Shown one piece after another: positions 3,367 through 55,800 of a DNA stretch of 58,325 nucleotides. The first letter of the stretch is position 1. Every line of letters begins with the position of its first letter. The position numbers were made by a program, and so were the translations under genes. Source of the stretch: a virus (Duplodnaviria; Caudoviricetes); IMG/VR virus record IMGVR_UViG_3300006919_000061, positions 1-58,325 of that record; one strand, given 5' to 3'. The notes beneath the pieces are model-generated. The model was not told where the DNA came from and searched no databases. It worked only from the letters and a program-made list of their open reading frames with translations.

Positions 3367-3374
3367 AGCTCCCC
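3367..3374 (-). promoter_or_regulatory. GGGGAGCT intergenic element, copy 1
   Basis: Minus strand TAGGGGAGC-TGA-GTTTCTCTA-TTTGCT; one of seven co-oriented intergenic copies. Confidence 0.6.
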
Positions 3375-3382
3375 TACTCAGG

Positions 3383-3748
3383 TTAGCAGGACGACAAGTC
3401 CATCACGGGCAGCTGCGCTGCTTCGCATAAGTAAGTTGTGCTAAACAACGTGTCAAGAAGCTCGCGGTGTACAGACTCGATGATGAGCAGAGCTCGTCTG
3501 TCTCGGTCGGACGGAGAGCGCGATAGCTCCGTGTAAAAAGTTGGCGCGCCGTCATCGTATAAGATGAATGCGATGCCATCGCTGGTCTCGAACCGAGATA
3601 TGGACACGACAAGTGGCTCGTCTGCTGCGAAGATGTTGTACGCCTCGTCCACCATGCGACTGAACGCACCGGCGTGAACATATTGCGCAATGTTCTGCTC
3701 GTCAGAGCATTGCAACCTAAAGAATGGATGCTGAGATGGCATATACAT
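3383..3748 (-). CDS. Hypothetical protein
   Basis: Start refined to MYMPSQHPF, downstream of the hairpin at 3800-3827; ~121 aa. Confidence 0.65.
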   Translation of the reverse strand: MYMPSQHPFFRLQCSDEQNIAQYVHAGAFSRMVDEAYNIFAADEPLVVSISRFETSDGIAFILYDDGAPTFYTELSRSPSDRDRRALLIIESVHRELLDTLFSTTYLCEAAQLPVMDLSSC

Positions 3749-3799
3749 GATACCAATATACGATACAAATCGGTTGGAACAACCGAACCTGAAAGGGTA

Positions 3800-3827
3800 G
3801 TACCCCCACACCGAAGTGCAGGGGTAC
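3800..3827 (-). terminator. Intergenic hairpin with UUCG loop
   Basis: Minus strand GTACCCCTGCAC-TTCG-GTGTGGGGGTAC just after the stop at 3834. Confidence 0.6.
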
Positions 3828-3833
3828 CGAAGG

Positions 3834-4172
3834 TTAGAATGGCAGGGTTGGTGCCTCCATAGAGAGGTTGTAGTCAAGAGTCTCCGAGAAGTCGTAGGCA
3901 GCCTGCATTACAGCGGCATACACTTGATACTCGTACTCGTCTTGAGTCTTCTTGAGAAGATACTCAGCGCGTTCGCCGATGTGTGCAGCAGCCCGCACCA
4001 TATTGGTGTGCTGAGGCTGGCAGATGTCTTCGCGTACCCAATTGGTAACAGACACGAGAGCCATCATTGCGAAGTGGCTCTTGCTTGTAGGAACAGACAG
4101 AGCAGCAGTATTGGCCGCGAGGAGAATAGTCTCCCCTGCGGTCATACTGTCGATGGAGTCGCGACGGCTCAT
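3834..4172 (-). CDS. Hypothetical protein
   Basis: 112 aa; ATGA overlap with the upstream micro-ORF. Confidence 0.75.
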   Translation of the reverse strand: MSRRDSIDSMTAGETILLAANTAALSVPTSKSHFAMMALVSVTNWVREDICQPQHTNMVRAAAHIGERAEYLLKKTQDEYEYQVYAAVMQAAYDFSETLDYNLSMEAPTLPF

Positions 4173-4279
4173 TTGGCAACAACGATTACGCCGTTGATGG
4201 CAGAGAACACGCGAGGACGGGGCTGCACCGTAGTGGTTGCAACTGTGGATGGCTTGTTGCCGGGAATGTTGAGATACAT
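4169..4279 (-). CDS. 36-aa micro-ORF (not in supplied track)
   Basis: MYLNIPGNKPSTVATTTVQPRPRVFSAINGVIVVAK; stop overlaps the next start (ATGA). Confidence 0.6.
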   Translation of the reverse strand: MYLNIPGNKPSTVATTTVQPRPRVFSAINGVIVVAK

Positions 4280-4291
4280 GATGTTGTGGAA

Positions 4292-4363
4292 TTAACGTTG
4301 AAAGAGAAAAGAATAGGCGAATGTGAGTACGCCGAGAATTGGAAAGATTAATGCGAGATGCAT
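4292..4363 (-). CDS. 23-aa hydrophobic micropeptide (not in supplied track)
   Basis: MHLALIFPILGVLTFAYSFLFQR; single TM-like helix. Confidence 0.4.
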   Translation of the reverse strand: MHLALIFPILGVLTFAYSFLFQR

Positions 4364-4389
4364 GAAATATGTAGAGAATATGAGTTGCG

Positions 4390-4905
4390 AATAGAAAGCA
4401 CCGCAGGTGCGCTAGATGTCTTAGTAGGGTATAACCATACCTGCGGTGCTTAGCAGTTTGTCATCTTGCTGGATTACGTCGTCGCCCACACTGACCGCCA
4501 CCTTAGAGCGCGTTGACTGGACTATATGTACGACCTTTCTAAAGAACTAAGAGGAGTCGCGGTACTAAACCGACTGTGGTCGCAGTTCCCAACGAGCCCC
4601 TCTTCCTGCCACAGCAGGATGTGAGTAAGTCAGTGCTCCAAAGGCTGAGCCAAGGGATTAGGGAGTGTCCCGACACTGAACTTACGAATGAGAGCGAGAG
4701 TGTGCACCGTGCCCGTAGGCATCTTGAACGGCTACACACTCTCTAACTATGACTATGCAGTGCAAGCTGGCACCGGTACGCTGAATATGAGTCATGCTTT
4801 AGAACGTACGCTGGGCATGACTATGGATAGTCCCCTTAACGCTTAGCGGGGTATAGCGGTGACGTCTTGCGCGCGTCACTATTCAAGAAGCAAACAGAGA
4901 CCCGG
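4390..4905 (-). ncRNA. Candidate ~500-nt structured non-coding RNA
   Basis: No credible ORF. Nested long-range stems 4519-4525/4827-4833, 4528-4532/4805-4809, 4537-4544/4797-4804; internal arms 4625-4635/4674-4685 and 4696-4704/4735-4743; terminal 13-bp stem 4396-4408/4439-4451. Strand inferred from context. Confidence 0.6.
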
Positions 4906-4913
4906 AGCTCCCC
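4906..4913 (-). promoter_or_regulatory. GGGGAGCT intergenic element, copy 2
   Basis: Minus strand GTAGGGGGAGCTCCGGGTCTCTGTTTGCT, directly ahead of the candidate ncRNA. Confidence 0.6.
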
Positions 4914-4966
4914 CTACCCTGCACAGCTACCCCGAAGGGTAACTGTGAGAGTGGGATTGCAGAGAA

Positions 4967-5293
4967 TCAGACGGTGGCCCAAAAGACACCCTCTTTTTCT
5001 GCGTGCGGGCGGACATCGCGCAGGGTAATCTGGAGTCCCTCGCCGTCTTCGCCAAGAGCCTGCGACTCGAGGTCGGTGGCATTGAAGCGGTTGGGGTTGG
5101 ACTCGTCCTGCGTGAGGAGGCCTGCGATGTACTCGGACATCGAGTTGAGCGCGATGTTGACGAGAGCGTTGGACTCGACGCCTTGGCCGAGGACAGAATC
5201 GCCGGTGGACATCGTGGCTTGTGCGGCAACGTAGAACTTGCCATTCTTCTCGGACTTAGTGGCGCCGAAGACCTTGGTGATTTTAGCGTTCAT
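4967..5293 (-). CDS. Hypothetical protein
   Basis: Start refined to MNAKITKVFG; ~108 aa with strong codon bias. Confidence 0.8.
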   Translation of the reverse strand: MNAKITKVFGATKSEKNGKFYVAAQATMSTGDSVLGQGVESNALVNIALNSMSEYIAGLLTQDESNPNRFNATDLESQALGEDGEGLQITLRDVRPHAEKEGVFWATV

Positions 5294-5359
5294 GCTATTG
5301 TGTATTGAGGATAAAAGAGAAATTTGTGACTGAATGTCCACAAGCAAAAAGAGTTGCTA

Positions 5360-5367
5360 AGCTCCCC
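5360..5367 (-). promoter_or_regulatory. GGGGAGCT intergenic element, copy 3
   Basis: Minus strand GAGAGGGGGAGCTTAGCAACTCTTTTTGCT. Confidence 0.6.
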
Positions 5368-5419
5368 CTCTCGGCATATAGGTCAGCGCGTTAAGCGCCA
5401 ACCCATATACGGAGGATAG

Positions 5420-5773
5420 TTAGTCGATAATCTCGAACGTGACGGTGTCAGTGAACACCTCGCCGAGAATAATGTAGGACACCACGTAGGTGTAGCCGGC
5501 GACGTGCTCGAACAACATGGGGAAGTTTTCGTTGTCGATGATGAAGCCGTCTTGCCCCACAAGCGTAGGGTATGTGCCGATGGAACCAAAGTTCCAATCG
5601 TGGACAGTAGCGATGTCGTTGACAGGGTCGATGATGACAGAGGAGTCAACGTATTGGCCCTGAATGCGAGCATGGTATTGCGTCTGTGCGCAGGAGTGCA
5701 GGGCACAGCAGCAGAGCAACGTGGCCAAGAGAGACTTGGCGAGGTTGCGGAAGAAGGAAGTGTAGTCGTTCAT
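5420..5773 (-). CDS. Hypothetical secreted or lipoprotein-like protein
   Basis: Hydrophobic N-region with Cys residues (LLATLLCCCALHSCAQ), beta-rich remainder. Confidence 0.75.
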   Translation of the reverse strand: MNDYTSFFRNLAKSLLATLLCCCALHSCAQTQYHARIQGQYVDSSVIIDPVNDIATVHDWNFGSIGTYPTLVGQDGFIIDNENFPMLFEHVAGYTYVVSYIILGEVFTDTVTFEIID

Positions 5774-5895
5774 TTGTTGCGATAGTATTCGATGAGCATT
5801 GCACCGAGCGTTGCGATAGCAAACAGCCCGGCGATAATAACGATGACGCCGGCCATGTTGCCGACGTCGAGAAGAAGGGATTCTTGTTCAGACAT
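5770..5895 (-). CDS. 41-aa single-TM micropeptide (not in supplied track)
   Basis: MSEQESLLLDVGNMAGVIVIIAGLFAIATLGAMLIEYYRNK; overlaps both neighbours. Confidence 0.7.
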   Translation of the reverse strand: MSEQESLLLDVGNMAGVIVIIAGLFAIATLGAMLIEYYRNK

Positions 5896-6115
5896 TGAGA
5901 GAATTGAATGTGTTGCCGGTCATGTAGAACTCGCGGACGAGTATCTTGCTGCCGTCGTCGTCGTAGTCGTTGTCGGCGAACACCCGAACGAGGGTGTCGT
6001 TGGCAGAGAGTTCTGGTGCATAGGTGGAGAACTCAACATCGACACCGGTGTAGTAGTCGTTGACCTCGTCGATGACTGCTTGAGCGTCGTCAATGGAAGT
6101 TATGTTGTAAGACAT
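5888..6115 (-). CDS. Small acidic hypothetical protein
   Basis: Start refined to MSYNITSIDD; ~75 aa. Confidence 0.75.
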   Translation of the reverse strand: MSYNITSIDDAQAVIDEVNDYYTGVDVEFSTYAPELSANDTLVRVFADNDYDDDGSKILVREFYMTGNTFNSLNV

Positions 6116-6131
6116 GAGAGAAGGGTTGAAC

Positions 6132-6239
6132 TTACCCGCGCAAAGAGCGCAGGTAAGCGATGAGAGAAGGAATGAGCATGAGCACTGTGAGTGTGCAGCC
6201 TGCAATGAAATTGAGCTGGTATGGAGTGAAATCTTGCAT
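6132..6239 (-). CDS. 35-aa single-TM micropeptide (not in supplied track)
   Basis: MQDFTPYQLNFIAGCTLTVLMLIPSLIAYLRSLRG; fills the gap and shares a CAACCCTTCTC leader with the 6115 gene. Confidence 0.6.
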   Translation of the reverse strand: MQDFTPYQLNFIAGCTLTVLMLIPSLIAYLRSLRG

Positions 6240-6259
6240 GGGAGAAGGGTTGTGTCCCC

Positions 6260-6553
6260 TCAGCACGAAGCTGAGAGGACGGTGTCTTGGACTTTGTGGA
6301 GCAGGGCGTTTGCCTCTTGGAGAAGCATTGCAGTGGTGCGCAGGCGAGCGAGGTCTTCCTCGCAGAAGTCGTTCGGGTACTCTGCCATGTAGTCAGCGCA
6401 GGTATCTGCGATGTCTTGGTAGTCTGCGTTGATGAAGCGGGAAGCTTGCTTGACGCGGACTGCGAGCATATGTGAGACTGCTCGGTTTTGCATTGCGTTG
6501 AGCGTGACAGAGACTGAGCCGAGCTTGACGAGGAGTTTACAGAGATTTTGCAT
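6260..6553 (-). CDS. Hypothetical helical protein
   Basis: Start refined to MQNLCKLL; ~97 aa. Confidence 0.75.
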   Translation of the reverse strand: MQNLCKLLVKLGSVSVTLNAMQNRAVSHMLAVRVKQASRFINADYQDIADTCADYMAEYPNDFCEEDLARLRTTAMLLQEANALLHKVQDTVLSASC

Positions 6554-6593
6554 AGAATATGTGTTTGAATGCGTAGCATGAGTTAGGAACTTG

Positions 6594-6601
6594 AGCTCCC
6601 C
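6594..6601 (-). promoter_or_regulatory. GGGGAGCT intergenic element, copy 4
   Basis: Minus strand GGGGGGAGC-TCAA-GTTCCT. Confidence 0.6.
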
Positions 6602-6649
6602 CCACAGACCCACACGCCACCCGTCAAGGGCAGCGTATGAGTTTGCAGA

Positions 6650-6895
6650 TTACTTGGTCAAGTCCATCTCCGCGAATGGGATGTTGAACTCGCGCGCCAA
6701 ACACTCGAACGCGGGAACCAAACCGTGAGCGATTTGAGTGCACTGGTTGCTGCCTGCCGCGTAGGAGACAGACCAACAGAAGTATGCGCCCTCTTCGGTG
6801 TACTCGATGACGAACTGGTCATACGTGAACACGTTGTCAGCGATGTTCTGAGAAACGATAGAGAGGAGCTTGAGGGTACGGGTGATGATGTCCAT
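6650..6895 (-). CDS. Hypothetical protein
   Basis: Start refined to MDIITRTL; ~81 aa. Confidence 0.7.
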   Translation of the reverse strand: MDIITRTLKLLSIVSQNIADNVFTYDQFVIEYTEEGAYFCWSVSYAAGSNQCTQIAHGLVPAFECLAREFNIPFAEMDLTK

Positions 6896-6934
6896 GGGAC
6901 GAAAATTGAAAAATGAGAAAAAAGAAAAGGGGAA

Positions 6935-6962
6935 GAACCCCACGCTATTATGCGCAGGGTTC
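6935..6962 (-). terminator. Intrinsic terminator-like hairpin
   Basis: Minus strand GAACCCTGCGC...GCGTGGGGTTC followed by TTCCCCTTTTCTTTTTT. Confidence 0.65.
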
Positions 6963-6968
6963 CGAAGA

Positions 6969-7178
6969 TTAGAAGTCGGTGGTGAAGTGTGCACCGATTG
7001 GTTTGTCTTTGAGAGCGAGGTACTCATTGTGACTGATGGTGTCGTCACACAATTCTTGTCCATACGCACCACAGAACGTGAGGTGAACAGACGTACCATC
7101 AAAACTGTGGTCAACGAGAACGTCCTCGATGTAGGTTTGACCACTGTTGTATTGTTCGATGAGAGTAGAAATATCCAT
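6969..7178 (-). CDS. Small acidic hypothetical protein
   Basis: Start refined to MDISTLIEQ; ~69 aa. Confidence 0.7.
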   Translation of the reverse strand: MDISTLIEQYNSGQTYIEDVLVDHSFDGTSVHLTFCGAYGQELCDDTISHNEYLALKDKPIGAHFTTDF

Positions 7179-7199
7179 AGACAGCGAGAAGAGAAGCGA

Positions 7200-7207
7200 A
7201 GCTCCCC
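7200..7207 (-). promoter_or_regulatory. GGGGAGCT intergenic element, copy 5
   Basis: Minus strand GGGGGAGC-TTC-GCTTCTC. Confidence 0.6.
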
Positions 7208-7228
7208 CACAGGGCATATGCCCATCAG

Positions 7229-7318
7229 TCAGAGACTGACGAGCACAGCGATTGCGAGAGGTACAGCGAACAGCAGGATTACTGGCCATACGGAAGCGGA
7301 GTTGTCTTCGTGATACAT
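7229..7318 (-). CDS. 29-aa single-TM micropeptide
   Basis: MYHEDNSASVWPVILLFAVPLAIAVLVSL. Confidence 0.55.
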   Translation of the reverse strand: MYHEDNSASVWPVILLFAVPLAIAVLVSL

Positions 7319-7329
7319 AAGAGAGAGGA

Positions 7330-7491
7330 TTAGGGGTTCATACGCTTGTAGTAGTTCATTCTGACCTTGATTTGGGCAAAGTTGATGAATTTGGAACGAG
7401 CGTTCTTGAAGTCTGTGATACCACAGGGAACAGATGGCCCTTTGTACAGAGACTTGAGAGTTGGTGTGGTTGGGGTTGGAGGGAAAGGCAT
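7330..7491 (-). CDS. Small basic hypothetical protein
   Basis: MPFPPTPTTPTLKSLY..., 53 aa, downstream of the 7506-7532 hairpin. Confidence 0.55.
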   Translation of the reverse strand: MPFPPTPTTPTLKSLYKGPSVPCGITDFKNARSKFINFAQIKVRMNYYKRMNP

Positions 7492-7505
7492 GAGAAAGAG
7501 AGTTT

Positions 7506-7532
7506 GAGGGGCACACGTAGTGTGCACCCCTC
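7506..7532 (-). terminator. Intergenic hairpin
   Basis: Minus strand GAGGGGTGCACAC-TAC-GTGTGCCCCTC just after the stop at 7538. Confidence 0.55.
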
Positions 7533-7537
7533 GGTGA

Positions 7538-7771
7538 TTAGAATACTTGCTTGTAGCCGAGTTTGACGAGGTCAGAGATGACCATGTAAGCGGTGGTTTG
7601 GTGAGCACCAATGAAGAGCTCACATGTTGCTTTGTTGTCATCGTTCATGCAGAAGAGGACATGTTGACCTGCATCCTTGTCGAATGACATGTTGAACTGG
7701 GTAGTCTTGGATGCGTAGTGAACGTGACTTACGGCAGTATTTGCAGTTTTGCGGCAATCAGATACAGACAT
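7538..7771 (-). CDS. Hypothetical protein
   Basis: Start refined to MSVSDCRK; ~77 aa. Confidence 0.7.
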   Translation of the reverse strand: MSVSDCRKTANTAVSHVHYASKTTQFNMSFDKDAGQHVLFCMNDDNKATCELFIGAHQTTAYMVISDLVKLGYKQVF

Positions 7772-7920
7772 TTGTATGGATGTTTGAGAGATGGGGTGAC
7801 AACTTGTCACATAGTGGTGGAATGTATGTCAGTATGACAGACAGGGGAAAGGGGTGGAACATAGCGCACACGGCTTGGCATGCACGTAACTGTCCACGTT
7901 TACCCCTCCATCTGTTAGCC

Positions 7921-7938
7921 CGGATGTTTTAGCTCCCC
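7921..7938 (-). repeat. 18-bp direct repeat containing GGGGAGCT (copy 6)
   Basis: CGGATGTTTTAGCTCCCC, identical to 8200-8217. Confidence 0.85.
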
Positions 7939-7989
7939 ATTAGTGGTAATAGTAGAGCACATACAGTGCCCTACCTTACCTTACTTACC

Positions 7990-8187
7990 TTACCTACGGA
8001 CCTTAACAAGGGTATCCTTGGGATACTTGTCCATGTGTGCTTGCATGTCACACTTGTCTACAAGTTGCATGTCAATATCGGTTACGCCTGTAGTATTACA
8101 GGTGTATACTTCTGTGACTGAGTACAGCGTAGCTGGTACATCACAGCAATCCTCCACGATAACGTGGTCAAGAGTATAACTATCCAT
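7990..8187 (-). CDS. Hypothetical protein, first gene of the leftward block
   Basis: 65 aa, bracketed by the two 18-bp repeats. Confidence 0.6.
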   Translation of the reverse strand: MDSYTLDHVIVEDCCDVPATLYSVTEVYTCNTTGVTDIDMQLVDKCDMQAHMDKYPKDTLVKVRR

Positions 8188-8199
8188 AGATAGTTGGTA

Positions 8200-8217
8200 C
8201 GGATGTTTTAGCTCCCC
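8200..8217 (-). repeat. 18-bp direct repeat containing GGGGAGCT (copy 7)
   Basis: Identical to 7921-7938. Confidence 0.85.
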
Positions 8218-8610
8218 TTCACAGAATCTAGTGGGGGGTACTTGATTGTCTTTTGTTGCGGGGGGCCTTGGCCTAATGTGGTCCCCACTTACGCTTCCCC
8301 AGAAGATTTCCCCATGTACCAGTAAAGGGCGGGGGGTTCATATATGGGAGCTGAGGGGTGGGGGCCTTATATAGGAGGTAGCCTATGGAGTGCGCGAATC
8401 CCGTTAGGATTCTTGGCCACATGTATTGGACGGGGTTCCACCCAGAGGCACTAGACGGCAGACATGCCTAATGTACAGTATGAGCAGGGATTCGTGTTAA
8501 CTCCTCGCGGATGGCTGCGCCATCGCTTTTAGCTTCTTACTGCCGTAGCAGTTAGCAGGTCAGGCTGCGCCTGTCGCTCTTAGCTGCTTAGCAGCGTCGC
8601 TAACACTTTA
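8218..8610. other. Non-coding strand-switch region (possible origin, terminus or control region)
   Basis: Gene orientation flips here; G-runs at 8231-8365; four short-loop hairpins at 8510-8595. Confidence 0.5.
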
Positions 8611-46815: not shown

Positions 46816-49800
46816 ATGTCTGAGGAGAACACCACGGATGGGGGAACTAATACCCCGAACCAAGAAACATCAGGAAATTCTATATCGAATACCCCTGAGT
46901 ACGGTCTGAACTTTAACAACCTTTCCTTTAGCCAAGGGCCTACCGAGCAGGTACGGAGCTTTGACGAGACCAAGGAGTTCATGGACGACACGACACAGTT
47001 CGGTCGCTATGATAACTTTGAGTCTGCGGCTCTGAACCAGTCTGGCTGGGAGGCACTGGGCCGTGGAGCTATGAACGCTGTGGGCGAAGTCGTCGGCGGT
47101 GGTATGGAAGGTATCGGTGCGCTGTTCAACTGGAACACGCTGACCGACCCTAAGAACACGGAGCGCAACTTCCTTGAGATGCTCGGCCAAGAGGTGCGGG
47201 GTAGCTTTGAGGATGGCAACGAAATCTACGACCTGCGGGCTGGAGAGACTATGGACGTGATGAACGTCAAGTGGTGGGCTAAGAACCTGCCGTCTCTTGC
47301 GTCTACTGCTTCTATGTTTGTGCCCGGTATGGGTGCTGGCTTTGTTGCTGCTAAGGTTCTGTCAAAGGCAGGACGCACGCTGAACAAGATTAACAAGATT
47401 GGTAAGACTTTGGACAAGGCTGAGGAGCTGGCTAGTGTTGCCAAGGCTGGTAACATTGGTTCTGCTGTCGGTCGTCAGTTTGGTGGTGCTGTGGCCATGC
47501 GTCACGCAGAGAACATGCGTTCTGCGCACGACGTGTACGAGCAGGCTTACGCTGACATTGCTAATTCTGACGGAGGCGTCGAGCAGTTCAAGGGCACTAC
47601 TGCATGGCGTGCTGCTGTTGAAGAGTTGGGACACCAACCTACTAAGGAAGAGCTTGCTGAGTACGTGGCAGGACAAGCCTCGTTGCAGTCCTACAAGGTA
47701 AACAGCCTGAACATTGGCTTTGACCTCCTGCACATGGGTGCACTCTCAAAGGCCCTCAAGGGTACGCGGGGTGTGCGTCGTGGGCTCAAGGGCGCTAAGC
47801 AAAAGGCAGCAGCTGCTGGTAAAGAGCTGACGCGTAAGCAGCGTAACATCGCACGGGCTAAGGGTCTGAGCGCTACGTTGTTTGAAGCTGGTACCGAGGG
47901 TATTGAGGAAGCTGTTAACTTTATTGGTGAGAACGAAGGTCGTTACCTTGGCCGTCAGATTTCTGGAGGCGAGCAAACTAAGTTTGGTGACCGTTTCAAT
48001 GAGTACGTTGCTGATGACCACTTGTGGGAGTCTGCATTCCTTGGCGCTCTCGGTGGAGGCGTGATGGCAGGTGGCGGCTCTCTTGTTGGCCGTGGCAAGG
48101 CTACGCGTAACCATGAGAAAATCATGGAGCAGATTGAGACGCGTAAGAAAGCCCTTGCTGAGATTGGTAAAAAGGTTGATGCCGCTAGTAAGACTGGTGA
48201 CGTTCGTGCGCAGCGTGAGGCTGTGCGTGAGGCCGTTACTGCAGAGGCTTTTGGAATGGGAGCCGAGTCTGCGTACAGCGGAACGGCTGACCTGCTGGAG
48301 ATTCAGTTGGCTCAGTTTGAGGAGGCACTGCGCGAAGAGGGTCACAGCCCTCGCATGATTGAGCAGACGCTTAACGACATTGCTAACCAGTTTAACACTG
48401 CTGAGCAGTCTGTTGAGAAGGGACAGCTTGTGGTGCAAGAGCTCGGCCTCGATGAGGACACGGGCATGGAGGTAATGAACCAACTCCTGCAACACGACTT
48501 TGTCGCTAACAAGATTGCAAACAAGCGCCAAGCTAACACTCGTAAGCTGCAGGGTCTGCCCAAGAGCGAAGAGCGTAAGCGGGAGATTATGTGGCACTAC
48601 CTCAACGAATACCTGAATAAGGAAGAGGAGCAGGATGCCAAGGTAATCGAGCGGCTTGAGGAAGCTATGGGCGGCCGAGAAGCTGTGCAGGCTATGACCG
48701 AGCGCATTGTTGGTAAGGTTGAGCAGAACACTACGGTTGACACAGCCGCTGTTGCTGCAGCAAACGAAAAGCTTGACCTTGCTATGGCTAAGGTCGAAAG
48801 CCTTAAGGCTGCAGTTGCTAACCAGTCAGACAACGAGGCTGCTAAGCGTCAACTGGCTGATGAGTTGATTGAAGCTAACGCTGCGGTAGAGGCTGCAAAG
48901 GCTGGTGTCGAGACTGCTAAGGCAGGTACTACAGAAGACATTGTTACCGAGGGCACGCCTATCCAAGAGGTTGGTGAGAACAAAGCAGACGATGTTTTGC
49001 AGAGCGAGATTGAGCTGGACTTCCAAGAAGCTGAGCTTGCTAAGCAGCGTGCTGCATTCTTGAGTGACGAGAACATCGACAAGCTGGTCGAGAAGTCTGA
49101 GGAGCGCAGGGCTGCTAAAGATAAAGAGCGCACTAAGCGGCGTAAGGAAGCTAAGGAAGAAGCTAAGACTAAGGAGGAGCTCGAGGCGCTGAAGAAGACT
49201 GCCGAGACTGTTGAGGAAGAGCAAGAGATTGACGATGCCTTGACGGACATGGTCAACCAAGCTAAGAACAACGAGACCCAGAAGGAACAAGAGCGTAGCA
49301 AGGATGTACAAGTTCCGACTGAGGTACAGAAGGATATTGATACGCTGCTTGAAAACAGCAAGTATGTACAGCTAAACGAGGATGGCTCGGCTTACGTTGA
49401 TAGCCGTACAGGTCAGCGGTACGTCCGCACGACTACGTGGATGAAGGGACCGAACGCTGCAGAGGAGTCTTTCTCTGACACGTTTGGTATTCCGTCCTCT
49501 AACATTGGTAACTCTGTTGACGAGTTTGTCCGTGACTTTATGGACGGCAATGTGCGCGCACCAGAGGCATACCCCCACTTGCCCGTTGAGCATCAAGAGA
49601 AGCTGGCACTGCAACTCATGGAGTTGGAGGCACAGTTTGTTGCTAACGGTGAGAAGGTTATTGCTAAAGACGTCGTGCTGTTTAACGACATGGATGTCAG
49701 CAACTTAGACCCTAGTGCGTCTGGTGTTGCTGGTACGGTTGACCTGTTGACTGTAGACGCCGAAGGTAACTTCCGTGTCTATGACATGAAGACCATCCGT

Positions 49801-52800
49801 AATGCTGCGTCTAAGAAGAAGGTTGTGCCTTTCGAGACCGACGGTATTAATCGTCGTACCGGCAAGGCTAAGTACGGCACTGGAGATAAAAGCTACAAAG
49901 GCTCTCCTACGCTGCAACAGAAGCACCAGAAGCAGTTGTCTGCTTACCGCCTGATGCTGATGAACCAACTTGGACGTCCTGTTCCTGAGATTGGCATTAT
50001 CCCTGTTGACGTTAGCTACGACACGAACGACAGCCTGAGCACGGAAGAGCTGAATGCTATCGTGACTGGCCGCGCCGACTACTTGGGCATGATTGCTCAC
50101 ACCCCGTTGGCTAAGCTTAACGGGTTGACTGAGCCTGAAGTTAACAACGCAGAGCCTGACCCGGACGACGCACCGGACCCGGGCAAAGACGATACTAAGG
50201 ACGAGGACCCTCAGGATAACCAGCCTGTTACGACGGTAGAGTTGGAACCGGGTACTGTTACCATCGAGACCCCTGACCTGATTCAGTTCTTTACGGAGAA
50301 GCTGTCGGTTGACTACGACCGTCACCGTGGCGAACCCTACCTTGTGCACACCGCCAACGGCCCTATCGTTATGGACGAGAGCCTGACGAAGGACCAGATG
50401 CTGCTGTTGCAAGAGGTTATCTCTGGCGCTAACACGGAGCCTATTACTATCCGTGTTGTAGGCGACACTACGCCTATTCCAAGCGTTGAGGTTTTTGACG
50501 CTCTTAAGGATACGCACGCTGCTGATAGCTTGCTTACTGAGAAGAACAAGAAAGGCCGCCGTCAGTACCGTCCTAGCGGTAAAGGCGACACCTTGGCACT
50601 GGACATTTTTGTAGGAGACCAGCGACTTGGCACATTGCCAAACACGAGTGCGCTTATGATGGCTGCACACAGACGTGGTATGGCTGAGAGCACTAGTGTC
50701 ATTAAAGGCGGCAAGAACAAAGGCTTGATGTTCCGTCAGAAATCTGAGGACGGATTTGGCGTTGGTTCACGTGTGGGCGAGGTACGTAAGCACGAGAACC
50801 GCATGATGACTGGGCCTACGCAGGCTGAGCACTTTGAGCGGGCTGCACAGATGCACGCTCTGCGCCAGCAGTTGTGGGAGCTGCACACGGCTAACGGAAA
50901 GAACATCGCTGACGGCGTATCGTTCCGTGTTAACATTAACTTTGGCGAGACTAGCTTTGGCAACAAGGCACAGGGTAGTCTCATCATGGACAGCAGCATG
51001 GAAGTGCGGGCTGAGCAGTATGGTGTGGGTGCATCTATCCGCCGTCACGGTATTGCGTTGATGATGCCTAACACGGGTAACAAGGAAATGTCCTTGAAGC
51101 GTAGTGGTGAGCGTGCTGCTCCGATTACACCTTACGGGTACAATGAGACGCGCCATCAGCAGGACGGGTTTAACCTTAGCCGCCACGAGTCTGGTGCATT
51201 GTTTGTGCCGATTGAAAGTGCAGGCGAGGTCATCTGGGTTAAGATGCCGGGCCAGACTGTAAGCATGCTAAACAACGGCGAGCGCATTGCCCGTGACATT
51301 ATTACGGAGCTTGCGAATCCTACGGCTAACAGCATTGCGCGTGCACAGAACCTTATTGGTAGCAACATTGTCCAAGAGATTGAGCCCGGTGTGTTTGCTA
51401 TCTTTGCAGACAATCGTAACATTAAGGTACCTGAAAGCCCAGAGAACTTAGCAGTGTCTATCTACCGCGACGGTCAATGGAGCACTCCGCTTGAGGAGAT
51501 TGTGCCTAACATGAACGTTGACATTGCAGTCAAGATTGCACAAGGCGACTCTGCATTTAACACCGACGAGTCCTTTACCGTTGGTGGTACTAAGTTCGAC
51601 GGCATCTCTGACTTCGTGGCTTCCGAGATGAAGCTAGGTCACTCACCTGTAGTGGACGGGGACGGCAACGTTATCAGCTGGACGCACCCACTTGCACCGG
51701 CATACCCTTATAACGAAGGCGACAAGGACAAGAGCTTCTCTAACGAGAACACCATGAAGACGCAGTTGACTATGACTGCTACCGTGTTGACGGGTGGTGA
51801 GGTTAAGCCTGTTACTACCTTGAGTGGTAAGGACTTGCTTGACGGTCTTATGGACAAGGACTCTACTGTCCCAGAAGGTGAAAAGGCGTTTGACGTAGAA
51901 GGCGACTTAGACTTCAGCTTCCTTACGATTGCTGCTGCTGAGTCCTCTAACAACGCAGACCGAGCTACCAAGATTGACATGAAGGAGGCCGAAGAGTGGT
52001 GGGCCAAGAACATGAGCTCTGTCCCGTTCAAGCGAGTCAAGGGCATCATCGAGCGTAATGGTCTCCTCGGATACGGTATCTTTGAGAAAGGTGCCGTTGA
52101 GGTGAGCGACCGCGCTGTAAAAGGTACGGAGTACCACGAGGCATTCCACGCCGTGTTCCAGATGTTCTTGTCTGATGACCGTCAGGCTAAGGTCATGGCA
52201 GACGCTAAGCGTTTGTACGGAGCTAAGAGCGAAGAAGCTTTGGAAGAAGATTTGGCTGAGGACTTCCGTGAGTATATGATGACTAGCGGCAAGAGCATGA
52301 ACGAAAAGTCTGTGGTTCGCCGCTTCTTTTCTGAGCTTATGGAGCTTATCAATGCTCTTACTAAGGAAGGCTTTTCCGGCTACCGTAAGGCTAAGTTGTT
52401 TCAGCAAATCAACCGTGGTAAGTTTAACAACGCTAGCCCCCGCGTGCGGGAGTACGCTACGCGTAACATGTTGATTGCAGAGAACCTGCCTGACTACAAC
52501 GAGAACGTACAAAAGGAGCTAGTGCAGAATGTGCAGTCAGCTGCCTTTACCGCTATCCGTGCTGCACAACGCGGCAAGGCTCCTGCGTCAATCATGAACT
52601 TGTACAACGACCTTAAGCAGCTCAACGCTATGAGCCGTAAGGAGTACAACGCTATGGCTAAAGCGCAGGACATGGACGGCATCCAACAGGAGGACCTGAT
52701 TAACCAGAAGATGGTTCAGCTCGGTATGCAGGCTATGGTTCACCAAGCTAACATGGTCTTGAAGACTGCGCCTAATCGTGCAGAGCTTGCTGCTCGCTAC

Positions 52801-55800
52801 AAAAAGCTGTTTAAACAAGACGTTGAGCCTATTAGCAAGTTCTTGTCTGAGCACCCCACCGTGCGCGCCTTTACCAAAAGCGCACTTGATACTGAGTTCA
52901 CTGCCGGTACTAACCAGCACCAGCAGAACAACGACTCGTTTGAGAAGATGAACCCGAAGGACAGCCTGTCGGCTAACGTCCGCAACCTCATCAACACTAC
53001 GCCCGAGGTCAGCATTGAGCTGTCACAGAACTCTCCGCAGATTGAGTTTCACATGGCTGCTGCTCGTTTGGCAGGACAGGAGGGTGACTTTGCTAAGGCA
53101 CAGGAGCACATCGCTGAGGTGCAGAACCTTGTTAACTCTAACGCTACTGAGACACACTTTGGCCTGCCGCAGATGATGCAAGTAGACCGAGTGTTTGCGT
53201 TCATGAGCGAGCGCCTTGCTAACAAGGCTACGCCTGAGGCTATGATTGACGAGCTCTTCCGCATGGGTGACTCGTACCCGCAGTTTAAGTTGCTGGGTCT
53301 GCGCCTTATGAAAGAGACGCCGGACGTGCGCGCTCAGTTCTTTGCAGGCTTCCGCCGTGGTGACACGACTGAGTTGGTGGTGAACAACCGCAAGTTTATT
53401 GAGGTCAGGGGCCCATTCGGTGGTACCTTGGCTAACCACAACCGTGTGCCGATTCAGTTGCGCATGGAAGAAATTGCCGCTGCCAAAGGCAAGGACCTTG
53501 TGCAGACTGCACGTGACGCACAAGCTGCTGCACAACGGGCACTTAAGGAAGTGCCTAACATGACGAATGAGCAGTTTGAAAAGACTGCTAACAAGTGGCT
53601 TGACGTTATTGGCTTCCAGACTATGGACCCGCAGGCACGTAGTGTTGTCTTGGCTAAGATTACACAAGACCCAGATGCACGCGCTAAGCTGTTCTCTAAT
53701 ATTGCTAACGTGCTGGGCGCGTACTCTGGCGTAGCTAACGCCAAAGACGTTACAGACTTGACATCTGACAAGCTGTTTAACAAGCACTTGATGAAGCTTG
53801 CTGAGCAGTTCCAAGCTGCAGACATGGGTGCTATTAGCACTACGTTTAACAACGTGGCTGGCAGCCGTCAGTTTTCTAAGCAAGTGCCGTCGTTTATTAC
53901 GGAGTGGTTCGACCAGTTCCAGAACTTCCCAGAAGGTACGGACATCGAAGCCAAGCTGCGGGAGACTGTCTTCCGTGACCCGCGCATGTACGCCACTACC
54001 TACGGCAAGTTGTTGTTCCCTAACGGAGCAAGCAAGCCGATGGACATGGCAGGCATGGCTGCTATCCGCACGTATCGTCTTGGTGGTAACGAAAGCTCAC
54101 AAGCTAAGTACACGGAGATGACCGAAGAGGAGTGGATGGGTATGCTGATTTCTGCAGTGTCTAATCCGGTTGAGGTTGCGCACAACAGCAAGTACCATTT
54201 CCTGCCCATCACTACGCCGTCTGACGCTACGAACACTATGATGGTGCCGGCGTTTATCTACGACATGCGCTCTGACGCAGGCAAGAAAGCAGCGCGTATG
54301 CAGCTGCGCAAGACTATTAAGTCTGAGTTCTACGAGCTGCAGCGCGTGCCGGGCCGCTTTACTATTGGTGCGGTGCACGAGTACTTGAGCAAAGAGCTGA
54401 ACAGGAAGAACGAAGACGGGGAAGGCAACTTCCAGATTGACATGGCTACGCTGCCAGAGGAGTTGCTTAATGAGGCAGTGGACAAGGCCGTGGGTTCCTT
54501 TGCTAAGGAGGCGCAAGCTCTTGTTGCTGACGAGAATTTCCAGCGCGCTAAGCAAAAGTCTAACCGCAAGGAGTCCAATAACATGGAGCTCGCACTGACG
54601 ATGGTTGTGTCGGGCTACATGAGCAACTGGTCTACTGGTGTGTCTCTTGCAGGTACGCCGAACGAGTTCAGCTCTAAGCTGAAGAAGAACACGGTTGACA
54701 TGCAGAAGCGCCACAAGCACATCCTGTCCCCGGGTGTTGCTAACGCAGGCGTTACTGCTCGCTCCCACTTCCGCAGCGTGACGATGGTTGAGTCCGTCGA
54801 GAATCTGCAGAAGCTTTGGGAAGGACTTGACCAGACGTTTGCTCTTGACGACAACTACAAGAAGGTTGAGATTGCAGACGCTCAGTCCTACGTGAGCCTT
54901 GAGTTCTACGAGGACATCCTGATGGAGCACGGTGACTGGACCCCTGAGATTGGTGCTGCTATTGCAAAGGCCAAGAAGGGTGAGAAGCTGGACGCTAGCG
55001 ACGTGAAGTTGCTGCGCCCGTACAAGCCGTTCTATTACACGCGTCAGTTTGATGCGGACCTCGGCATGTCCCGCTCGTACCAGATTAAGAACTCCATCAT
55101 CCCTGTGGTGGGTGCGCTTAGCCCCGAGTTTAAGAAGTTTGAGGACTGGATGCGCGCGTCTGGTGTTGACCAAGTGCAGATGGGCACGGCCCACAAGGTG
55201 GGGCAGCACAAGAACAACATCCCACTGCGTAACGCAGAGGGTGAGTTCACTGGCGTTGCTCCTACTACTAACGAAGAAAAAGCCTCGTTTGACGAGGAGT
55301 TCGTGTACGAGCTGCCGATGACAGGATACCGCAAGCAGGTTAACGTCACCGACCACTGGCACTCTGACTCCGAGAACAAGCTTGCTAGTCAGCTCGAGAA
55401 GATTGTGACTGCCGCCGCTGTCCGTAACATGGGCGAGGAGGGTGCTCGTATTTCTAACGAGTTCGTCCAGACTATGGATGAGATTTACAAGGAGCAGTAC
55501 GACAAGTTCTTTGGTCAGTTCGAGACTAGCAACGGAGAGATTAACCCCAAGAAGTTTGCTGAGTGGCTGCTTAGCGAGATGGCTGAGGACGAGCTTACAG
55601 ACTCTAGCCGTAAGCTTATTCAGGCTGGCATGTTCACCGCGCCTAGCGTGATTGGTGCAGTGCGTGGCCGTATCTTCTCTGCTGTGCAGAAGGAGGTGAA
55701 CACCATTCAAGTGAACGGTGGTACGCAAGTGCAGGTGGCCAGCCAGTTCTTCCGGACTAACAAGAACCGCTTGCTGCCTATGCGCAAGGAGGGGGACAAG

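Follow-up and report, generated by a model that had tools for sequence, protein, structure and literature searches.

In the present study, we found that positions 4388-4914 of the virus record IMGVR_UViG_3300006919_000061 of IMG/VR hold an undescribed structured non-coding RNA (ncRNA), and that a core of 78 nucleotides (nt) is the one module of this locus kept across all lineages found. The window, as we call the whole stretch of DNA analysed, is the entire record of 58,325 bases (completeness estimate, 68%), and its source is an uncultivated aquatic crAss-like phage. The record encodes a major capsid protein of the crAss type (Pfam Crass_capsid, 1.1e-82), together with a terminase and a portal protein. 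The closest cultured relative by the terminase (TerL) is the Flavobacterium phage FpV4, with 39.4% identity, and the host is presumably a member of the Bacteroidota. The public runs containing the stretch carry a freshwater label, and partial holders carry a marine or seawater label; two of these marine or seawater runs contain close relatives, as seen by comparison of their contigs with the stretch. The genes at 1-8.3 kb lie on the minus strand, and the RNA locus is therefore read on the minus strand. With modest confidence, we favour the explanation that the minus strand of 4388-4914 is a genuine modular ncRNA locus giving an early transcript, in which the core serves as a protein-docking scaffold or decoy.

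The core is built of two hairpins, P1 and P2, which abut each other (Table 1). Their loops UGUG and CACA are complementary and pair with each other, and the internal loops UUGGGAACUG and GGUUUAGUACC vary little or not at all. One copy per record was found in six distinct sequences, namely the window and the loci L003, L004, L006, L014 and L033. Only about 75-80 nt align between the core-containing lineages, at 83-96% identity, and the flanks are unalignable. Of the 135 cells in the five-sequence alignment, 97.8% are paired, and both sides have changed in 5 of 27 pairs, values that none of 500 shuffles reached, and slid controls of the same alignment paired in only 30-56%. Among these five, the pair at the tip of P2 appears as A-U, G-C and U-A. 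When the sixth sequence and the loop-loop helix were included (alignment A6, which was fitted to the model and favours pairing, with the base-of-P2 columns of L033 forced), 96.2% of 185 cells paired, with both-side changes in 9 of 31 pairs (0/500 shuffles). The loop-loop helix pairs in all 24 cells and includes one change from U-A to C-G, in L033, and one from G-C to G-U, in L014. The loop of P1 is UGCG and the tip loop CGCA in L033, and L014 has CAUA; the others keep UGUG and CACA. In addition, the model R1, made from five sequences without L033, matched L033 at 52.4 bits (E 1.7e-8). L033 had first been found by way of a different module and is the sixth and more divergent member; in 135 kb, R1 matched only its own five members. 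G-U pairs fill 12 of the 185 cells and would be A-C mismatches on the opposite strand, which identifies the transcribed minus strand as the one that folds.

Further copies of the core were searched for by pattern scans with its invariant words. The scan of IMG/VR returned seven stretches, of which three are true (L003, L004 and L006) and four are copies of one chance match within an open reading frame (ORF) of 613 amino acids (aa). In the JGI metagenomes, eight stretches were found, three of them true (L014; L013, which is the L003 contig; and L015, a copy of the window at 99.86%) and five by chance. A seventh core was seen in a contig of 495 nt from the public run X6, one of four runs (X6, X7, X8 and X13) whose contigs were compared with the stretch; its similarity is confined to 4546-4621, where there are 10 differences, and its flanks are dissimilar. 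Both invariant loops occurred together in only three stretches of a genome collection of 185,579 species, as single copies with unrelated flanks; an origin of the core from a host gene or attP site was rejected on these flanks. Several other loci were set aside: L005, L007, L008, L009 and L017 as chance matches inside the 613-aa ORF; L010, L011, L012, L016, L018, L019 and L020 for their unrelated flanks; and L037, L039, L041, L043, L044 and L045 on flanks and G+C alone. R1 gave no match to FpV4. Complements of the core loops, with at most one mismatch, were found in no telling place elsewhere in the window that would point to antisense targets.

The locus does not code for protein and belongs to no RNA family that we could find. 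As the sequence-only reading had claimed, it is free of ORFs, the longest in 4280-4966 being 66 aa. Read-through of TAG, TGA or TAA gives no frame of more than 130 codons, and a recoded gene was thereby ruled out. The sole ORF frame common to the window and L002 has seven residue differences and a different stop, and the core of L004 carries a 1-nt insertion, both of which argue against coding. With gathering thresholds, a search of the whole window against Rfam 15 gave no match. When E up to 10 was allowed, 4200-5100 gave only two chance matches, to HIV-1_SD (21.3 bits) and a long ncRNA fragment (12.9 bits). The families covered include tmRNA, RNase P, group I/II introns, GOLLD, ROOL, YrlA and small ribozymes. 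ARAGORN called no tRNA or tmRNA gene in the window and none in L004. By blastn, 4300-5000 had no match among 50,697 phage records of GenBank. The core alone, at E up to 10, gave 16 records there; all 15 listed have E of 0.7 or worse, and 13 of these 15 weak matches lie under annotated genes. No published RNA family matching the locus was found in Rfam, in the literature on ncRNAs of crAss-like phages (supplementary lists not covered) or by the words of the core, for which the one literature match, a paper on Vogesella bacteraemia, was taken as unrelated sequence.

The sequence-only reading had described the locus as a nested, multi-branch RNA of about 500 nt, closed by one long-range helix. 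All ten stem pairs that it named, and the terminal stem of 13 base pairs (bp) at 4396-4408/4439-4451, are present where it placed them. Nine of the ten are exact reverse complements, whereas the arm GTAAGTCAGTG/CACTGAACTTAC has unequal sides. The element GGGGGAGCT ahead of the RNA and the tail TTTCTATT past the terminal stem were also read correctly on the minus strand, and the nested arrangement appears in the predicted minimum-energy fold of that strand. The closing helix did not hold up as a conserved feature. Its five segments have pair probabilities of 0.11, 0.54, 0.90, 0.21 and 0.49, and it is missing in the closest relative of the window, an IMG/VR contig of which L002, L003, L013 and L025 are loci. 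In this relative, 4696-4914 is largely missing (158 gap columns; identity in the 61 aligned columns, 57%, 35/61), as are 25 nt at about 4489-4513. Because of these gaps, all five segments are left without their 5' strand in the relative, and two of them without their 3' strand. No closing-helix partner was seen in L033. Contigs of X13 follow the window from 4200 to 4756-4780 and are unlike it beyond, and X8 shares the 25-nt deletion and, near 4830, has an insertion of about 68 letters; a contig break of X8 inside the core (4533-4602) and the parts of the stretch without contig cover are not interpretable. With the closing helix missing and the 5' part fluid in relatives, a single closed fold of 500 nt is therefore not a conserved object, and could still be adopted in this single phage. 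The proposed arms fared unevenly: AAGAGG/CCTCTT and TCCTGC/GCAGGA turned out to be the base of P2 and P1 of the core, and GTAAGTCAGTG/CACTGAACTTAC is kept in L003, but GAGAGTGTG/CACACTCTC and ATGACT/AGTCAT are absent from the closest relative. Thus, the discrete RNA first proposed survives as an undescribed structured locus with purifying selection and compensatory changes, and not as a closed architecture of about 500 nt. The roles of sponge, decoy or ribozyme that the sequence-only reading had suggested are conjectural.

Comparison of relatives suggests that the locus is a string of modules gained and lost between them. Between the window and L002, 258 of 278 aligned columns of 4390-4695 are identical (93%), against 67 of 110 in the spacer 4280-4389 (61%), a pattern that points to strong purifying selection on the locus. 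Within it, Arm A, which is the arm GTAAGTCAGTG/CACTGAACTTAC, is identical to L002 in 68 of 71 columns and is read in L033 too, and the 3' block in 63 of 67 aligned columns, with 25 gap columns. In the 5' part, a block at 4832-4852 aligns with L014 (z 4.5) and is also seen in L033. The arrangement of L033 is syntenic: a gene for a putative OB-fold protein is followed by a gene-free stretch of about 800 nt and then by the ORF MYLNIPGNKP. This stretch holds Arm A, the 5' block, the divergent core, about 250 nt of extra modules and then the post-core words of the window, so that the words of the 3' block lie about 250 nt further from the core. The 3' end of the RNA of L033 consists of a 5-bp hairpin and then a run of U, and the 3' arm of the terminal hairpin of the window can by itself form a small 5-bp terminator-like hairpin.

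Table 1. Positions of the RNA locus, its modules and its neighbours (window coordinates, unless a locus is named)
Feature	Positions	Strand	Remarks
Conserved core	4544..4621	-	Alignments A4 and A6, model R1
P1, 5-bp hairpin, loop UGUG (4610-4613)	4605-4618	-	
P2, long irregular hairpin, roughly 22 bp, tip loop CACA (4575-4578)	4549-4604	-	
Arm A, long hairpin GUAAGU.CAGUG / CACUGACUUAC	4625..4695	-	In predicted fold
Lineage-specific 5' part	4696..4905	-	Holds 5' closing-helix strands and two arms of the sequence-only reading; largely missing in L002/L003
3' block AUAGAAAGGUCGUACAUAUAGUCC ... GACAAACUGC	4452..4543	-	Holds 3' closing-helix strands
Terminal 13-bp hairpin, 30-nt loop, then UUUCUAUU	4388..4451	-	57/61 columns identical to L002, loop included
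Promoter-like motif GGGGGAGCT, head of the non-coding unit	4906..4914	-	Exact match; putative function
11-bp hairpin, UUCG cap, just past the stop of the 108-aa gene	4922..4947	-	Compensatory U-A to C-G in L002
Upstream 108-aa gene	4970..5293	-	80% identity in the L002/L003 contig; 11 homologues in metagenomes
Downstream 36-aa ORF (MYLNIPGNKP...), first gene past the RNA	4172..4279	-	101/108 nt identical to L002 (94%); same ORF past the RNA in L033
Module 2	L035 3092-3202; L036 about 2050-2185; L004 5924-5984; L014 156-216; L033 7436-7496; also L040, L042, L034, L038		

The signals around the locus suggest that it heads a small early operon. The motif GGGGAGCT has seven minus-strand copies at 3367-8218, each of them past a hairpin and usually by only a few bases, and stands at the equivalent gene heads in L003. 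A scan allowing one mismatch adds GGGGTAGCT at 4925-4933, inside the UUCG-capped hairpin. Over both strands, the promoter motif scan gave 17 matches, where 10.3 would be expected; at least as many were obtained in 5 of 100 shuffles. A different recurring word, spelled TAGAGATGAG, TAGAGGTGAG or TAGAGATGAA, precedes the RNA in L033, L014 and L006. The 108-aa protein encoded upstream is probably an OB-fold single-strand-binding protein, judging from its structure model (predicted local distance difference test, pLDDT, 79.9), whose best folds were PriB/SSB with Z 5.7 and Foldseek E 0.18, both weak; no Pfam or PHROG match was obtained. Its gene is syntenic in the window, L003, L014 and L033, and not in L006 or L004. 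A loci search with the alignment of this protein returned only the known relative contig, and a search with the 112-aa protein encoded downstream returned none. A UUCG-capped hairpin stands directly past the stop of the OB-fold gene in three lineages, with compensatory changes in the stem: the window, L002 (about 4338-4363) and L014 (reverse strand, about 730-755), where it keeps the place in a different spelling.

Two further observations concern the window at large. On the minus strand of 5400-7920, four early-arm windows of 521 nt have folding z-scores of -2.69 to -4.89, stronger than that of the RNA locus, which suggests dense hairpins between or within small early genes. A plus-strand ORF (46816-58323), of 3,836 aa or more, is cut off by the end of the record; judging from its position, it may encode the giant virion protein, or else the RNA polymerase, found in crAss-like phages.

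According to the explanation that we favour, transcription of the locus would start at the lineage-specific promoter-like motif and end at the hairpin with a U-rich tail. The transcript would accumulate early, by analogy with the unrelated long ncRNAs of phi14:2, a crAss-like phage of Cellulophaga. The invariant internal loops of the core, in which GGGAAC opposite UAGUACC may resemble a loop-E/sarcin-ricin motif, may serve for the docking of a protein, whether of the host or of the phage, and the RNA would act as a protein-binding scaffold or decoy. Two early intergenic RNAs of phi14:2, g004-g005 and g005-g006, were reported to be more abundant than most mRNAs and have no assigned function (Drobysheva et al., 10.1101/2020.03.07.982082). 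They resemble the locus as gene-free stretches of several hundred bases among early genes of a crAss-like phage, in the same orientation as these genes. The two systems differ in that expression was shown in phi14:2, whereas the locus is known here from DNA sequence, and in that no common upstream motif was found for the early transcripts of phi14:2 (10.1101/2020.03.07.982082), whereas GGGGAGCT recurs in the lineage of the window. R1 had no match in the whole genome of phi14:2 (NC_021806, all 100,418 bp), and R2 had none in its first 9 kb.

Several points weigh against this explanation, besides the model-fitted alignment A6 mentioned above. The distinct core sequences number only six or seven. 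The folding z-score, proposed as a check by the sequence-only reading, gave little support: the minus strand scored -2.34, with 1 of 100 shuffles as good, and -1.88 in a re-run with 25 shuffles (plus strand, -1.42), and 6 of 12 other windows of 521 nt lay below -1.88 (25 shuffles each), so that the locus is no better than its neighbours. The covariation that was looked for is present in the 78-nt core as compensatory changes, but there is almost none in Arm A, the 3' block and the terminal hairpin, for which conservation extends no further than close relatives. No RNA run containing the stretch was present among the 24 listed public runs. In L003, the RNA has no promoter-like motif directly ahead of it, the nearest lying 589 nt upstream, before the OB-fold gene, and the RNA would there be a 3' extension of the mRNA of that gene. 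Furthermore, the locus is also a leader of roughly 630 nt ahead of genes without a motif of their own, a position that fits a cis-acting as well as a trans-acting role.

The last point leads to the alternative that survives best, though we hold it to be only a tentative possibility, in which the core is a cis-acting leader element, either a processive antiterminator like put or some related element of elongation control. The folded nascent early RNA would bind the polymerase, from the host or packaged in the virion, and let it read through 4388-4451 and later hairpins into the genes of 36, 112 and 164 aa. These three genes would depend on read-through because no GGGGAGCT lies between 4905 and 3376. 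The put RNA of phage HK022 is described as a double hairpin of about 65 nt that lets RNA polymerase read through the terminators of the early operon (PMC8632103). The core is likewise a double hairpin, with two abutting hairpins in 78 nt supported by covariation, and it too would lie in an early phage transcript ahead of early genes, flanked by a promoter-like motif and a U-tailed, terminator-like hairpin as sequence patterns. The order of motif, RNA, terminator-like hairpin, 36-aa ORF and 112-aa gene recurs in L033, and in L006 the core begins 5 nt past a promoter-like word. However, the genes past the RNA differ between the window and L006, and the core, with one short and one very long hairpin in loop-loop contact, a presumed Bacteroidota host and a polymerase that may be the virion enzyme, differs from put, with which it was compared by description, and has no match in Rfam. 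The terminal hairpins have loops of 30, 20 and 11 nt, unlike standard intrinsic terminators. The early polymerase of phi14:2 is the virion enzyme gp66 (10.1101/2020.03.07.982082). We know of no RNA-based antitermination for a virion polymerase of this kind, no literature search having been made, which also counts against a put-like role. A more specific and bolder version, which we rate as rather unlikely, is that the core binds the transcribing polymerase of the crAss-like phage, perhaps the virion-packaged two-barrel RNA polymerase, and makes it resistant to termination. Equally bold would be a decoy for a host RNA-binding protein of defence or quality control.

The remaining alternatives are weaker. 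It is improbable that the whole region is ordinary intergenic DNA with chance stems, conserved through recent recombination between close relatives. The folding z-scores, the closing helix that is not conserved and the patchy identity of the window and L003, which are close relatives, all speak for it. On the other hand, the core persists at 83-96% identity between unalignable flanks and with compensatory changes, and the adjoining spacer has diverged to 61%. This alternative is already contradicted for the core and stands for the peripheral arms. Quite improbable is also an element acting at the DNA level, with hairpins in single-stranded DNA serving as a replication or priming signal or as an N4-like hairpin promoter for a virion polymerase. 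The early promoters of N4 are DNA hairpins, such hairpins would form in either nucleic acid, and the upstream gene looks like that of an OB-fold single-strand-binding protein. Against this, the G-U pairs of the core arise only when the transcribed strand is folded, the element has the orientation of the genes and lies past a promoter-like motif, and the loop-loop covariation and the irregular helix of about 22 bp would be more typical of RNA. Very improbable is a mimic of a host CRISPR repeat, either as an RNA anti-CRISPR or as a solitary repeat unit: in about 11 bases and in hairpin layout, the inner part of P2 may resemble a Cas13b-type repeat, a likeness supported by no tool result, but in the comparison, which covers sequenced hosts only, the two invariant loops had just the three single-copy places with unrelated flanks given above, and the 12-mer GTTGGGAACTGC occurred in 71 of 401 Bacteroidota genomes, at most three times per genome and unclustered, like the reversed-pattern control.

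Other large phage RNAs were also compared with the locus. GOLLD (RF01998) and ROOL (RF03087) are, like it, large structured RNAs of phages or prophages, without assigned function and sometimes beside tRNA genes. They differ from the locus, which is shorter and deeply conserved only in its 78-nt part and has no match to them at E up to 10. There was no match to RF02553 for YrlA and the bacterial Y RNAs, and none of five phage records, all of them fragments, showed a Ro60/TROVE gene (PF05731), with D. radiodurans and B. thetaiotaomicron positive as controls.

A second conserved element was recognized upstream of the cores. It is a block of 37 nt common to L014 and L004 (z 19.7), called module 2, which consists of two hairpins, with an invariant loop of 13 nt, ACGAGAUACCAGA, and a 7-bp hairpin with the loop GCUG. 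All 72 cells pair, and both sides have changed in 6 of 12 pairs. Module 2 stands beside the core in three crAss-like contigs (L004, L014 and L033) and recurs inside tRNA arrays of AT-rich phages, in 0 of 5 of whose records a crAss capsid was found; no core was found in these phages. An H-type pseudoknot precedes it in some phages. Module 2 matches nothing in Rfam and is absent from the window, where the best R2 score (10.6 bits, E 0.55) lies outside the locus. An HDV-like theta ribozyme was rejected for it by our own reading of the sequence, since the 8-nt loop of the first hairpin cannot hold the P2 and P3 strands that such a fold needs (cf. PMC10879173). Words resembling tRNA were also seen. 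At the 3' end of the RNA locus of L004 (about 6310-6387), a 7-bp acceptor-like helix AACACAG/CTGTGTT encloses a canonical-looking T arm, CGAGGTTCGATTCCTCG, and neither ARAGORN nor Rfam calls a tRNA there. Another orphan T arm adjoins module 2 in L036, L040 and L042.

Few known viruses are as abundant as the crAss-like phages, and the control of their early genes is poorly understood. The core is a small and sharply defined motif, supported by covariation and with a testable loop-loop contact, which is kept while its surroundings reshuffle. It is thus a tractable handle on which protein or polymerase is bound and on whether the core controls read-through into the downstream early genes. A polymerase-binding core, if true, would to our knowledge be the first put-like antiterminator known outside lambdoid coliphages. 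In addition, these findings add to a view of phages as carriers of libraries of small folded RNA modules, which are absent from RNA family databases and in part common to unrelated phages and tRNA arrays.

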